Source: Bacillota bacterium
Lineage (GTDB): Bacteria; Bacillota; Sulfobacillia; JACIYH01
DNA length: 61,191 nucleotides
NCBI GenBank assembly: GCA_014360055.1
Contig: JACIYH010000005.1
Coordinates: 1-61,191, forward strand
Reading direction: 5' to 3'
This document shows positions 20,893-25,139 of this stretch, one piece after another. Below the pieces are notes generated by a model, which was not told where the DNA came from, made no database searches, and was given only the letters and a program-made list of their open reading frames with translations. How positions within the stretch are numbered: position 1 is the first letter of the stretch; each line of letters begins with the position of its first letter. Made by a program: the position numbers and the translations under genes.

Positions 20893-20922
20893 TTGACAAT
20901 GAGCATGGCCGGATGCTATTTT
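20893..20922 (+). promoter_or_regulatory. sigmaA promoter of the hrcA operon
   Basis: TTGACA-N18-TATTTT with TGn extension, immediately upstream of CIRCE. Confidence 0.7.
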
Positions 20923-20933
20923 CTTGTTGGGTT

Positions 20934-20960
20934 TTAGCACTCCGCCCGTGGGAGTGCTAA
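20934..20960 (+). promoter_or_regulatory. CIRCE element (HrcA operator)
   Basis: Perfect TTAGCACTC-N9-GAGTGCTAA. Confidence 0.97.
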
Positions 20961-20969
20961 GGTGGAACG

Positions 20970-22007
20970 GTGGACGAACGCAAGCGCAGGATACTCCAGG
21001 CCATAGTCGAAGATTACGTGCTCACCGCCGAGCCGGTGGGCTCACGTACCATTGCCCGCAAGTACGGGCTGGGCGTGAGCGCGGCCACCATCCGCAACGA
21101 GATGGCGGACCTGGAAGAAATGGGGTACGTGGAGCAGCCCCATGCCTCGGCAGGGCGCATCCCGTCCGACCGCGGTTACCGGTTTTACGTTGATGAACTC
21201 ATGGAAGTGAAGCCCCTTCCGCCCTGGGTGGTGGAACGGGTGCAGGAGTTGTGCGAGGGGCGCGTCCGGGCCATGGAGGCGGTACTCCAGCAGGTGGCCC
21301 GGCTGCTGAGCGAGGTCACCAACTCCCTTGCCATCCTGGTGGGTCCCCAGGCCGGAGAGATGGTGTTCCGCAGCCTGGACCTGGTTCCGGTGGGGCCATC
21401 CCGTGCCCTGCTGGTGGCGGTGGCCGACCTGGGCCTGCTGGAGTCGGGCATGGTGGAGGTTCCCGCCGACCTAACCCCGGCTGAACTCCACTACATCTCT
21501 CAGGTGCTCACCCGCGGCCTGCGGGGTTTGTCCGTCCAGGCCCTCAGCCACACCATCCTCCGGGAACTGCAGGCCGAACTGGCGCGTTACCGCCAGGTGC
21601 TGGAACAGGTCCTGGAGATACTGGTGGCTTCGGCCCGGGAGCAGGTCCCGGACCGCATGTACCTGGTGGGCCTCAGCACCCTGCTTTCCCAGCCCGAGTT
21701 CCATGACCGGGAACGGCTGCGGGCGGTCATCTCCGTCCTCGAGCAGGAGGTGCTGGCGAAGTACCTCCTCATGGTCTCGACTGAGCGGGAGCAGGAGGCG
21801 GGGGTAACGGTGAGCATCGGCCGGGAGAACCCCCTGGGTGAGGTGCGCGACCTCAGCCTGGTGTTCACCCCGTATCGGGTGGGGGTGTCCCGGGGAAGGC
21901 TGGCCGTGGTCGGTCCCAAGCGCATGGACTACGGCCGCGTGGTGGGGGCGGTGGCGGATTTCGAGCGTCTGCTGAGCGATCTCCTGGGGAGGTGGGCCCT
22001 GGTGTGA
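20970..22007 (+). CDS. hrcA: Heat-inducible transcription repressor HrcA
   Basis: AEPVGSRT, SAATIRNEMADLEEMG, QPHASAGRIPSDRGYRFYVD, GPKRMDY. Confidence 0.96.
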   Translation: MDERKRRILQAIVEDYVLTAEPVGSRTIARKYGLGVSAATIRNEMADLEEMGYVEQPHASAGRIPSDRGYRFYVDELMEVKPLPPWVVERVQELCEGRVRAMEAVLQQVARLLSEVTNSLAILVGPQAGEMVFRSLDLVPVGPSRALLVAVADLGLLESGMVEVPADLTPAELHYISQVLTRGLRGLSVQALSHTILRELQAELARYRQVLEQVLEILVASAREQVPDRMYLVGLSTLLSQPEFHDRERLRAVISVLEQEVLAKYLLMVSTEREQEAGVTVSIGRENPLGEVRDLSLVFTPYRVGVSRGRLAVVGPKRMDYGRVVGAVADFERLLSDLLGRWALV

Positions 22008-22071
22008 GTGGGGGCCTCACCGCCCCGGGTCCGCGGTACCCGCATTTTTTTTGTGACAGGGAGGTTCTTAG

Positions 22072-23664
22072 ATGGCACTGAAGCAGGTGGCGTCCGGCGC
22101 CGAGATCGACGAAAAGCTCGCGGCCCTTTTGACCAATGCCAACGCGGTACGCGCCATTGCCTCCGCCGTGGAGGGCACCATCGGGCCCAAAGGGCTGAAC
22201 ACGCTGCTCGTCGATCGCTTCGGGGACGTGACCATCACCAACGACGGGGTCACCATCCTCACCAAGATGGACGTCAACCATCCGGCGGCCCGCATGGTCA
22301 TCAACGTGGCGCGGGCCCAGGAGCAGGAGGTGGGTGACGGGACCACCACCGCCACCATCATGGCCGGTGCCTTGCTGACCGAAGGTGTGAACCAGGCGGT
22401 GCGGGGGGTGCCGGTGACGCGCATCATCGAGGGGGTTAAGCTGGGCATCCGCAAGGCCATCGAAGAGGTGGAGGCCAGGTCGCGACCGGTGAGCGGGGTG
22501 GACGATCCCGTCCTGCGCCGGGTGGCTTACGTCTCCGGACGGGAACAGGAGGACATCGCCGACCTGGCGGTCCGGGCGGCCGCCCTGGTGGGCCGGGAGA
22601 AGCTCCTGGACCGGTCCTTCAAGCTTTCCGATACCGTGGTGGCCAAAGCGGGGGCCGAGAACGAGGTCTTCCTGGGCGTGATAGTGGACAAGCAGCGCAC
22701 CAACAAAGAGATGCCCAAAGAGGTAGCGCCGGTGCGGGTGCTGGTGGTGGACGACGCCCTGGAGCCCGAGGAGATCGAGGAGGAGGCCCTGGGCACCGAG
22801 GCGGGTTTCAACCGGTACATGCAGCTCCAGGAGGAATTCCGGGCTAACGTGCGCAAGGTGATCTCCCTCGGGGTCAACCTGGTGGTGGTGGACCGGGGTG
22901 TAGACGAGGTGGCAGAGGAGATGTTCACCGACGCCGGGGTGATGGTGCTGCAGCGGGTTTCCTCACGGGAGTTGCGCCAGGTGGCCGAGCACACCGGGGC
23001 CCGGGCGGTCAAGCGCACCGCCCTGCGTAAGGAGCCGGCGGAACTCGAGAAGTACCTGGGAGCGGCCGACCGGGCCTATGAGGACGAGAAGCTGGAGCAC
23101 GTACGGGTACTGGGTGGCAGGGGCAAGCCCATGGCCACCATCCTGGTGGGTGCTGCCACCCAGGAGGTGGTGGGAGAGCGCGAGCGCATCGCCAAAGACG
23201 CCACCTCCGCAGTGCAGGCGGCGGTGCGGGGGGGCGTAGTCGCCGGCGGCGGGGCCATTGAGTTGGCCGTCTCCCGGGAAGTGGAGAAGCTGCGGGCGAG
23301 CGTACGCGGCATGGCGGCATACGGGGTGGACTGTGTGGCGGAAGCCCTCAAGAAGCCGCTCTCCCAGATCGTGGCCAATGCCGGCTTCAACCCCCTTGAG
23401 AAGGTGGGGGACGTGATGGCCGCCCAGGTGGAGAGGGGTTCCGACTCGCTGGCCGTCGACTGCGACACCGGCGAAGTGGTGGACATGTACGAGGCGGGTG
23501 TCCTTGACCCCACTCCCGTCAAGACCTACGCCCTGCGGGCGGCGGGGGAGATCGCGGAGGCTATCCTGCGCATCGACACCATCATAAAGAAGAAGGATGA
23601 GGGAGGACCCGGCCAGCAGGGCGGAGAAGAAGGCGCGGCCGGCGAGGACGAGCCGGATTTCTGA
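22072..23664 (+). CDS. Thermosome-like TCP-1/cpn60 chaperonin (bacterial group III type)
   Basis: GTIGPKGLNTLLVD, ITNDGVTIL, VNHPAARM, EVGDGTTTA, GGGAIE, AILRID; lacks the GroEL N-terminus, the GGM tail and an adjacent groES. Confidence 0.9.
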   Translation: MALKQVASGAEIDEKLAALLTNANAVRAIASAVEGTIGPKGLNTLLVDRFGDVTITNDGVTILTKMDVNHPAARMVINVARAQEQEVGDGTTTATIMAGALLTEGVNQAVRGVPVTRIIEGVKLGIRKAIEEVEARSRPVSGVDDPVLRRVAYVSGREQEDIADLAVRAAALVGREKLLDRSFKLSDTVVAKAGAENEVFLGVIVDKQRTNKEMPKEVAPVRVLVVDDALEPEEIEEEALGTEAGFNRYMQLQEEFRANVRKVISLGVNLVVVDRGVDEVAEEMFTDAGVMVLQRVSSRELRQVAEHTGARAVKRTALRKEPAELEKYLGAADRAYEDEKLEHVRVLGGRGKPMATILVGAATQEVVGERERIAKDATSAVQAAVRGGVVAGGGAIELAVSREVEKLRASVRGMAAYGVDCVAEALKKPLSQIVANAGFNPLEKVGDVMAAQVERGSDSLAVDCDTGEVVDMYEAGVLDPTPVKTYALRAAGEIAEAILRIDTIIKKKDEGGPGQQGGEEGAAGEDEPDF

Positions 23665-23699
23665 ATCCCTGCCTGCTGGGCGGGTGTGGCCCGGGAGGG

Positions 23700-24026
23700 G
23701 TGGCTTTGCAGAATCCACCCGCGCCCAACGCTGGTGATCCCCTGGCACCGGCGGGGGAGGATCCCCTGGTACTGAAGGTGGCGGGGTACCTGGCGGACGT
23801 CTTCCGGGAGCGCACCGGGGTGGATGTGCGTTCGGACCCGGCGGCGTGGGACAAAGTCGTGCGGGCGGCACGGCGGGCGCGCCGGGAACTGGGGCGCTCC
23901 ACCGCGTACAATGTGTCCCTTCCGTTCCTGTTGAAGGGGACCGAAGGACCCCTTCACCTGGACGTAGTGATCACCCAGCGCCAGTTCCTCGAACTCATGA
24001 TGGGGGAGGCACCCGAGGAGGCTTAG
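23700..24026 (+). CDS. Stand-alone DnaK/Hsp70 subdomain IIB-like protein (108 aa)
   Basis: NAGDPLAPAGED..YLADVFRERTGVDVRSDPAAWDKVVRAARRARRELG..NVSLPFL...GPLHLDVVITQRQFLEL aligns by eye with DnaK NGDTHLGGED..LADEFKKE.GIDLRKD.MALQRLKEAAEKAKIELS..INLPFI..GPKHL...LTRAKFEEL; RBS GGGAGGGG. Confidence 0.7.
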   Translation: MALQNPPAPNAGDPLAPAGEDPLVLKVAGYLADVFRERTGVDVRSDPAAWDKVVRAARRARRELGRSTAYNVSLPFLLKGTEGPLHLDVVITQRQFLELMMGEAPEEA

Positions 24027-24029
24027 GCT

Positions 24030-25139
24030 TTGCCAGAGCGGCGGAATTACTACGAGATCCTCGGTGTGGGCCGGGATGCCAGCCCCGATGAGATCAAGAA
24101 GGCGTACCGGCGCCTGGCGCGGCAGTACCACCCGGACGCCAATCCCGGGGACCCCACCGCCGAGGAGAAGTTCAAGCAAATAAACGAAGCGTACGCCGTC
24201 CTGTCTGACCCCGAGAAGCGCGCCCGCTACGATGCCTATGGTGAGGTGGGGGGCGCCGCTGACCTGGGGAGTCCTTTTGCCGGCATCCAGGACCTCTTCG
24301 ATATGTTTTTCGGTACCGGTCGCCCCCGGGGCCCGCGGCCGCGGGAACCCAAGCGCGGGGCTGACCTGCGCCTTGACCTGGACATCACGCTGGAAGAAGC
24401 ATTTTCCGGGGTGGAGAAGGAGCTGGAAGTGCCGCGCGTGGAGCGGTGTCCCATTTGCGACGGCACCGGCGCCCGACCCGGTAGTCCGCCGGCGACCTGC
24501 TCCCGCTGCCGCGGGACCGGGCAGGTGGAGACGGTGTCCGACAGCCTGCTGGGGCGGTTCGTTTCCATCCGGACCTGTCCCACCTGCGGCGGTGAGGGCA
24601 CGGTGGTGACCGACCCCTGCCCGGACTGCGGCGGCCTGGGGCGCGTGCGCCGGGTGAGGCACATCCGGGTGAAGGTGCCCGCCGGGGCAGACAGTGGCCT
24701 GCGGTTGCGCCTGGCCGAAGAGGGAGAGCCCGGCACCCGGGGCGGACCGCCCGGTGACCTCTACGTGGACATCCACGTGCGGCCCCACCGGTTCTTCCGC
24801 CGGGACGGTGATGACCTGCACTGCGAAGTGACGGTCAGCTTCATCCAGGCCGCCCTGGGGACCCTGCTCGAGATCCCCACGCTGGACGGGTCCGCCCGCG
24901 TAAAGGTACCCGAGGGTACCCAACCGGGAGCGGTGGTGCGCCTGCGGGGCGCAGGTATGCCCCGGTTGCGCGGGGGGGGCCGGGGGGACCTGCACGTGCA
25001 CCTTGACGTGCGCACACCCACCGGGCTGAGTCCCCGCGAAAAGGAGCTGTTGCGGGAGCTGGCCGCCATCCGCGGCGAGGGCGTGAAGGAGAAGGATAAG
25101 GGGCTATGGGGGCGCGTGAAGGAAGCGTGGAACAGTTGA
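24030..25139 (+). CDS. dnaJ: Molecular chaperone DnaJ
   Basis: YYEILGV, HPD, four CxxCxGxG repeats, C-terminal domain. Confidence 0.96.

Follow-up and report, generated by a model that had tools for sequence, protein, structure and literature searches.

A stand-alone DnaK subdomain IIB protein, very probably a selected remnant of dnaK, encoded between chaperonin and dnaJ genes in a Bacillota heat-shock locus

The stretch of DNA analyzed here (the window) comprises 61,191 nucleotides (nt) of a contig from a Bacillota bacterium (JACIYH010000005.1, assembly GCA_014360055.1). Between the gene of a thermosome-like chaperonin (cpn) and dnaJ it contains a short open reading frame (ORF), hereafter the mini-ORF, whose product, the mini, corresponds to subdomain IIB of the Hsp70 chaperone DnaK and to no other part of it. 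We have little doubt that the mini is a selected, protein-coding remnant of dnaK. As judged from its structure model, it would be a folded single-domain protein of about 106 amino acids (aa), consisting of subdomain IIB alone. The fuller explanation, in which this remnant also acts as a heat-induced competitor that mimics the IIB lobe of DnaK, is the best we can offer, but it is put forward tentatively and falls somewhat short of even. The mini-ORF and its translation signals are as follows.

23700..24026, + strand: mini-ORF, stand-alone DnaK subdomain IIB; 108 aa if started at GTG 23700 or, more probably, 106 aa with TTG 23706 as the start
23694..23698, + strand: GGAGG ribosome-binding site (RBS) of the mini-ORF, 7 nt before TTG 23706
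24015..24021, + strand: GAGGAGG RBS of dnaJ, within the 3' end of the mini-ORF

A Pfam scan of the mini returned only HSP70 (PF00012; E 4.2e-8, 32.3 bits with a cut-off of 20.6), with residues 26-100 matching positions 229-302 of the 599 in the profile, and the DnaK models of NCBIfam (NF001413, TIGR02350) match the same stretch, with 46.9 bits versus an equivalog cut-off of 648. Of the solved structures, DnaK chains match best (Geobacillus 2v7y, E 8e-11), and identity to the solved DnaKs amounts to 27-33%. Residues 23-97 align with E. coli DnaK 232-306 (PDB 1dkg_D, E 7.9e-10), from which the numbering used below is taken (mini residue + 209 = E. coli DnaK residue); the end of the mini-ORF then corresponds to approximately E. 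coli residue 317. Of the actin-like ATPase domain (IA, IB, IIA, and IIB) with its phosphate- and adenosine-binding motifs, IIB alone is matched, and the mini-ORF encodes neither the interdomain linker nor a substrate-binding domain. The AlphaFold2 model, for which 38 family members were used, has a mean predicted local distance difference test score (pLDDT) of 82.5, with core blocks at 86-94, and places helices at residues 20-37, 45-62, and 91-99 and a hairpin at 67-77/82-90; residues 1-19 are predicted to be disordered, leaving a folded core of approximately 20-100. The model has the fold of DnaK IIB (helix, helix, long beta-hairpin, helix). The initial annotation, made by eye, had limited the match to subdomain IIB and read the GDTHLGGED motif as degenerate and EKAKIELS as changed to RRARRELG; the Pfam and PDB searches confirm the former and the DnaK alignment the latter (LGGDDFD has become AGEDPLV), while the Foldseek comparison that it proposed superimposed the model on solved DnaK IIB with a root mean square deviation of 1.4-1.5 Å over 81 columns (TMq 0.73, E 1e-7). 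By these comparisons, the mini appears to be a homologue of one part of the Hsp70 family and not itself a DnaK. It cannot bind or hydrolyze ATP, given that it lacks all other parts of the ATPase and that cleft-facing residues invariant in DnaK vary freely in the minis.

The sequence and the ORF list bear out the gene arrangement described earlier, namely an intact ORF with its own RBS that ends 3 nt before dnaJ and holds the dnaJ RBS inside it: the stop codon is TAG at 24024-24026, the dnaJ start is TTG at 24030, and the GAGGAGG at 24015-24021 precedes this start by 8 nt. Since the GGAGG at 23694-23698 lies 1 nt before GTG 23700 and 7 nt before the in-frame TTG 23706, the latter is likely the better start, which would yield a 106-aa product; the database entry P0004 has the same length. 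The open frame carries little weight by itself, because the DNA is G+C-rich and a 491-aa antisense frame also covers the region, and the case for the mini-ORF therefore rests on homology, on gap-free alignment, and on the ratio of nonsynonymous to synonymous substitution rates (dN/dS, omega).

Within the class, cpn was found in 73 of 210 genomes. Leaving out five genomes with partial cpn matches, 69 cpn loci from 68 genomes were surveyed, and these fall into three layouts.

Layout A, hrcA-cpn-grpE-dnaK-dnaJ: 11 of 69 loci (10 genomes)
Layout B, hrcA-cpn-mini-dnaJ: 16 of 69 loci, in families f1, f13, f14, f17, f23, f26, and f39
Layout C, hrcA-cpn-dnaJ without a mini: 41 of 69 loci, 39 direct and 2 of family f53 with an unrelated 278-aa ORF in the slot
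Unclassifiable: 1 of 69 loci, cut by a contig end

The mini-ORF is intact in all 16 layout B loci, which are distributed over at least seven families, and is 84-112 aa long; in the searched genomes, minis occur in cpn operons only, always between cpn and dnaJ. Their identity to the window protein is 73-76% within its genus and 28-43% outside it (for cpn, 93-96% within the genus and 55-76% to relatives in the class, with one locus at 49%), and they align with 38 full-length DnaKs over approximately 85 columns with zero gaps. The junctions, measured from stop to start, are tight. At the upstream one, cpn and mini overlap by at most 11 nt or are at most 73 nt apart; at the downstream one, mini and dnaJ overlap by no more than 17 nt or are separated by no more than 28 nt in 14 of the 15 loci having dnaJ. 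The exception is genome G088, with a gap of 1364 nt into which a TnpB-like gene has been inserted (a 377-aa ORF that by eye resembles TnpB/IS605 OrfB; contig C8, L055 3614-4747, - strand). Its mini is intact and has, by eye in the alignment, approximately twice the lineage-specific replacements of its sister in G089. A Shine-Dalgarno (SD)-like motif precedes the candidate start in 14 of the 16 loci, and the remaining two starts overlap or abut the cpn stop. In many of the layout C loci listed, the cpn stop overlaps the dnaJ start. Besides the class survey, the protein database holds 22 short relatives of 57-120 aa, among them entries from Bacillota metagenome bins labelled "Hsp70 family protein", the only label that databases give to the family, and a phylum-wide sample of 401 genomes including that of the window gave, at E <= 1e-24, no short-frame match beyond the window's genome, a threshold at which weaker minis may be missed. 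A library-wide profile search was dominated by DnaK fragments of short metagenome contigs and thus gave no usable count of family size. As far as sampled, the family is confined to one class of Bacillota.

Several side observations were made in these loci. The slot ORF of f53 (278 aa; L056 3100-3936, + strand; L062 3598-4434, - strand) has by eye a nucleotidyltransferase-like GS...DxD motif, and its start overlaps the cpn stop. In G018 (contig C46, L033 297-1915, - strand) cpn is split into two ORFs while the mini is intact, and in G108 (contig C4, L099) the operon is present in a second copy, whose cpn is split and whose dnaK is truncated; each could be a decaying copy or an assembly error.

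Selection on the mini was estimated by the Nei-Gojobori method in four phylogenetically independent, unsaturated pairs of genomes, with bootstrap 95% limits.

G000 (the window's genome)/G001: omega 0.21 (0.11-0.40)
G024/G042: omega 0.155 (0.06-0.34)
G088/G089: omega 0.33 (0.17-0.64)
G040/G200: omega 0.31 (0.18-0.49)
Four pairs pooled: omega 0.26 (0.19-0.35)

Omega is below 1 in each pair (one-sided Fisher p 6e-4 to 7e-8). For the other operon genes, the same or comparable pairs gave 0.04-0.19 (cpn), 0.05-0.27 (dnaJ), and 0.085-0.33 (hrcA); the mini is thus constrained about as hrcA is, and less than cpn. None of the marks of a pseudogene (frameshifts or stops, indels, dN/dS near 1) was seen in the minis of the 16 loci. 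Since omega is low and no indels have accumulated between families that are saturated at synonymous sites, the mini is under purifying selection at the protein level and is not a neutral scar. The initial annotation had preferred a selected mini-protein to a fresh deletion scar. Its half concerning selection holds, given the orthologues of similar length in the same slot, their gap-free alignment, and omega values of 0.16-0.33 (upper 95% limits below 0.65) with no frameshifted mini copies among relatives; with regard to origin, the mini is still what a deletion left of the operon dnaK, an old remnant that was kept.

Conservation was analyzed on 12 non-redundant minis. Low-entropy positions are F35, G40, D42, D46, A49, L64, V72, P75, F/C76, P84, H86, L87, and D88, all of which except V72 and D88 are also conserved in DnaK; we read them as residues of the hydrophobic core, of the turns, and of the long hairpin (LPF...GPxHLD) at its base. 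The hairpin (276-302) keeps its DnaK length in all 16 minis. Within the non-redundant set, no position was found that is conserved in minis yet clearly free in DnaK. Conversely, the GGDDFD motif, Q260, R261, E264, E267, K270, S274, and R302-L312 are invariant in DnaK and free in the minis; these would belong to the nucleotide cleft, to the contacts with lobe I, and to the return to IIA. The arginine-rich, strongly basic helix of the window mini is a trait of its genus.

Regarding its origin, the distribution of other dnaK genes is informative. An operon of an hspR-like (MerR/HspR-like) gene, dnaK, and grpE is present elsewhere in 12 of the 13 layout B genomes examined and in all three of the layout C genomes examined, and in 7 of the 10 layout A genomes the operon dnaK is the single IIB-bearing locus. 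A tree built from IIB segments groups the DnaKs of hspR-type operons in one clade (98/99), with every mini outside it. Because the mini occupies the grpE-dnaK slot, because a second, hspR-like dnaK operon lies elsewhere, and because the hspR-type DnaK clade excludes the minis, the mini appears to be the remnant of the hrcA-operon dnaK, left after the second dnaK system had made that gene redundant. In the window's genome, this second heat-shock operon (G000:C109:53744-57930, L001) consists of the hspR-like gene, the full dnaK, and then grpE, and reaches the contig end; a second, divergent grpE-dnaK pair is on contig C51, and clpB is on contig C140. The latter contig (G000:C140:4359-8323, L116) starts at its end with a C-terminal fragment of GrpE, with clpB downstream, and C109 and C140 may join, in which case clpB would be part of the hspR-like-dnaK-grpE locus.

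The trimming may have occurred once or several times. A 98/98 branch splits 14 of the 16 minis from all DnaKs, and the two f23 minis lie among the DnaKs on a long branch; a single clade of all 16 is not rejected by the IIB data (p-AU 0.316). In the cpn tree the three layouts are interleaved, and the starred branches force at least four changes of layout B; one split of layout A versus the rest is marginally rejected by the cpn data (p-AU 0.0216, the group having been named after the tree was seen). Judged by branch lengths in the IIB tree, the mini evolves several times faster than DnaK IIB. These trees are to be read with the caveat that fast-evolving rows may attract one another and that operons may have moved between lineages. 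A more far-reaching proposal is that the mini represents a new kind of co-chaperone, a heat-induced single-lobe mimic that tunes GrpE and/or ClpB or tethers them to cpn and DnaJ, and that it arose more than once by convergent trimming of dnaK. It draws on the at least four changes of layout B, on the separate position of the f23 minis, and on a separate IIB-only fragment in genome G002, and we regard it as rather unlikely.

That fragment (contig C1, L035 5770-6093, - strand) is a lone IIB-only piece inside a 107-aa ORF in an unrelated neighborhood. A 224-nt segment of it matches, at 91.5% identity, the part coding for IIB in the gene of the divergent DnaK paralogue on contig C51 of the window's genome (L002, L128); at the protein level, 77 aa are 92% identical to residues 209-285 of that paralogue. 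Within 12 kb of the piece, no other parts of a C51-type dnaK and no synteny were found. In addition, two proteins from elsewhere, P0023 (326 aa) and P0024 (163 aa), have by eye two tandem IIB domains, preceded in P0023 by an apparent TIR-like N-terminal domain, which suggests that IIB may have been reused as a module in other contexts.

The genes and signals around the mini-ORF are those of a heat-shock operon.

20893..20922, + strand: sigma-70-like promoter, TTGACA-18-TATTTT, with TG before the second hexamer, upstream of hrcA; proposed from the consensus match alone
20934..20960, + strand: CIRCE (controlling inverted repeat of chaperone expression) operator, the HrcA binding site, TTAGCACTC-N9-GAGTGCTAA; a perfect inverted repeat with 0 mismatches
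20970..22007, + strand: hrcA, heat-shock repressor, 345 aa (Pfam HrcA, E 1.9e-55)
22072..23664, + strand: cpn, thermosome-like (group III type) chaperonin, 530 aa (Cpn60_TCP1, E 7.7e-114)
24030..25139, + strand: dnaJ, type I, 369 aa, with J domain, zinc-finger domain, and C-terminal domain (Pfam DnaJ, E 4.4e-31; DnaJ_CXXCXGXG, E 2e-16; DnaJ_C, E 1.3e-52)

None of 100 shuffles reproduced the CIRCE match. The cpn gene ends with TGA at 23662-23664, and no terminator-like sites were found between cpn, the mini-ORF, and dnaJ. The four genes hrcA, cpn, mini, and dnaJ thus appear, from their arrangement and signals, to form one operon under HrcA/CIRCE control. A weak terminator-like hairpin with a T-run at 22026-22042 (+ strand), between hrcA and cpn, is a possible attenuator within it. 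The best NCBIfam matches of cpn are thermosome subunits, below their cut-offs, and its gene lies within an hrcA/dnaJ heat-shock operon, as in group III; it thus fits the bacterial group III chaperonins, a class assigned here from profiles and operon context. The window chaperonin ends in a flexible acidic tail closing with PDF. Across the class, most group III-type chaperonins have a C-terminal tail, flexible and Gly/acidic, whose last residues are (E/D)-x-D-F, such as EEMDF (window 23590-23661; loci L031-L099); this tail is present in operons with and without dnaK or mini and may be a docking motif. With respect to expression, the hot-spring metatranscriptome RNA-Seq library X1 contained 45% of the sampled words, and an 845-nt contig assembled from it covers 23454-24298, that is, the end of cpn, the whole mini-ORF, and the beginning of dnaJ, with 15 differences and no gap. 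Within the mini-ORF, these differences amount, by hand, to three synonymous codon changes and two replacements, A48V and R66H. The libraries X2 to X8 had small word shares or none, X2 being without cover over the mini-ORF, and are uninformative either way.

Subdomain IIB of Hsp70 is the lever moved by every nucleotide-exchange factor and a handle for the disaggregase ClpB. A competitor mechanism can be proposed on this basis, to which we give somewhat less than even odds, about those of the explanation as a whole or a shade lower. On induction, the mini would rise with the HrcA regulon, alongside DnaJ and cpn, and, as a mimic of the IIB lobe, would compete with full-length DnaK for the proteins that dock there. 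It would capture the GrpE dimer through its conserved beta-hairpin and would possibly also bind the middle domain of ClpB. The outcome would be slower nucleotide exchange, biasing DnaK toward its ADP, substrate-holding state, or a retuned coupling to the disaggregase, while DnaJ and cpn rise. The mimic model is favored because the best-conserved part of the mini is the partner-docking hairpin, invariant in length. In E. coli DnaK, the hairpin 276-302 with Y285 (mini F76) contacts the four-helix bundle of the GrpE dimer, and Y285R or deletion of 285-295 weakens GrpE binding 30- to 100-fold, whereas Q260R in the helix has no effect (PMC10825016). Similarly, the middle domain of M. tuberculosis ClpB was modelled on IIB alone via M229 and Y257, which correspond to mini A48 and F76 (PMC8209680). 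Both GrpE and ClpB are encoded in the window's genome. The GrpE-decoy role suggested in the initial annotation received weak support from a complex prediction of the GrpE dimer (residues 60-237) with the mini, which scored 0.45 (runs 0.39, 0.45, and 0.47) versus 0.01 for the best control, with at least 80% of contacts agreeing between runs and a partner pLDDT of 76. Of 80 solved complexes, 58 attain the mark set for such scores, as do 2 of 110 mismatched pairs, and passing scores of up to 0.60 came from only 7 of the 80 solved complexes and from both mismatches. The pass may also reflect memory of the solved DnaK-GrpE complexes.

Several points weigh against this mechanism and the explanation built on it. 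By the calibration above, a score as weak as that obtained is wrong in the majority of cases if there was no prior reason to expect the pairing, and an isolated IIB has none of the contacts of IA and IB to which DnaK owes its nanomolar affinity for GrpE. The conserved positions are read as a fold core with no surface patch specific to minis, the helix 255-272, which faces nucleotide and GrpE, varies freely, and the net charge ranges from -4 to +4 with no common electrostatic signature. The position of E. coli Y285 (mini 76) is F in 6 of the 12 non-redundant minis, including that of the window, and Cys in the other 6, which argues against a single conserved GrpE/ClpB contact through that residue. 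Moreover, the mini is missing from 41 of the 69 cpn loci, with repeated loss on the cpn tree, and is therefore dispensable. Finally, the RNA evidence is a single contig assembled from an RNA library, which is no proof of transcription and is silent on translation.

Other explanations can account for part of these observations. That the mini is a neutral pseudogene fragment, a deletion scar left open by chance in G+C-rich DNA, agrees with the long chance ORFs common in the window and with its origin as a remnant; it can hardly be reconciled with omega values whose upper limits stay below 0.65, with a gap-free alignment across at least seven families and a confidently predicted fold, or with the different look of a truly decaying duplicate such as the G108 operon copy on C4, and we give it almost no credence. 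A harmless translated spacer is a more serious possibility, albeit still an improbable one: here, a piece of IIB would be kept foldable and non-toxic, or kept for translational coupling, without any partner, and would later be cleanly deleted to give cpn-dnaJ. Conservation limited to core positions while surfaces drift, the tight junctions on both sides, the loss in 41 of 69 loci (with the cpn stop overlapping the dnaJ start in many of those listed), and the roughly doubled replacements of the G088 mini once separated from dnaJ all point in this direction. However, dnaJ has a strong SD of its own inside the mini-ORF, so coupling is not obviously needed, and the G088 mini is intact although 1364 nt now uncouple it from dnaJ. 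A peptide of about 100 aa would rarely do much harm when broken, yet no frameshift, stop, or indel is found in the 16 loci, and omega is as low as for hrcA.

Similarly doubtful is a role as co-factor of the operon neighbors. IIB would have been the part of the old DnaK in contact with DnaJ or the group III chaperonin, and it would have outlasted the replacement of the rest by serving as an adaptor or lid-binding factor. Against DnaJ as the partner speaks that J domains dock on DnaK at its IA/IIA-linker side. The restriction of minis to the slot between cpn and dnaJ agrees with a co-factor but is explained by descent, and most cpn operons have no mini; likewise, the (E/D)-x-D-F tail offers a possible docking motif in all three layouts, but it does not co-vary with the mini, the tails being alike whether or not a locus has one. 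A direct DnaK-chaperonin contact was proposed by the authors of the group III structures from the shared operon (PMC5635000, PMC5220055). The contact between CCT and Hsc70 was considered as a precedent for binding of IIB to a chaperonin and dropped, since the reported CCT site lies in IIA (V189-V195), not IIB, according to a citing paper (PMC2940730). Lastly, the mini might mediate regulatory cross-talk, binding HspR of the second dnaK operon or HrcA and thereby linking the two regulons. Genomes with a mini do combine an HrcA/CIRCE operon with an hspR-like-dnaK operon, and in actinomycetes DnaK is the co-repressor of HspR, the analogy behind this idea. Still, nothing points to IIB as the HspR-binding part of DnaK, genomes without a mini carry the same two regulons, and we find this alternative very unlikely. 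The selected IIB remnant that competes with DnaK for its docking partners is thus the explanation that we retain, at the tentative level given above.

Compared with known systems, the mini resembles bacterial DnaK IIB (E. coli ~228-310) in sequence, topology, and length, with no indels and the LPF...GPxHLD hairpin kept; it differs in standing alone, without IA, IB, IIA, linker, and substrate-binding domain, and in not conserving the GGDDFD motif or Q260, R261, E264, E267, K270, and S274. MicroProteins, a concept from eukaryotic transcription factors, are small single-domain proteins derived from larger ones that titrate the partners of their ancestor. Like these, the mini is small, comprises one putative interaction domain, and descends from a multi-domain protein of which the cell retains another copy; unlike these, it is bacterial and chaperone-derived. 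An engineered fragment of DnaK lobe II (PDB 5OOW), among the top structural matches of the mini, shows that part of the nucleotide-binding domain of DnaK folds alone, but it is a laboratory construct of IIA and IIB that still binds nucleotide, whereas the mini is natural and IIB only. With the hrcA-cpn-grpE-dnaK-dnaJ operon of the Carboxydothermus hydrogenoformans type, as given in the group III papers (PMC5635000, PMC5220055), the window shares the cpn family, the hrcA start, the dnaJ end, and CIRCE; it differs in having lost grpE and, apart from IIB, the whole of dnaK, the working dnaK-grpE being in the hspR-like operon. In the passages covered, the same papers place cpn inside the dnaK operon and raise the possibility of a link between DnaK and the chaperonin, with no mention of a truncated dnaK (PMC5635000, PMC5220055). 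No description of a stand-alone DnaK IIB protein was found in the literature covered, the founding group III paper and its supplements lying outside it.

The mini family would thus be an Hsp70-derived, single-lobe protein family under selection that is apparently undescribed. A natural, selected stand-alone IIB would be, to our knowledge, the first chaperone lobe to persist as an independent small protein, and it would offer a ready probe or inhibitor of GrpE and ClpB docking. The layouts suggest an evolutionary series from the full operon through the IIB remnant to clean loss, after a second dnaK operon had arrived, which would illustrate how an essential gene, once redundant, is taken apart and what part of it is worth retaining. 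The mini may also bear on the way in which the DnaK system and group III chaperonins work together.

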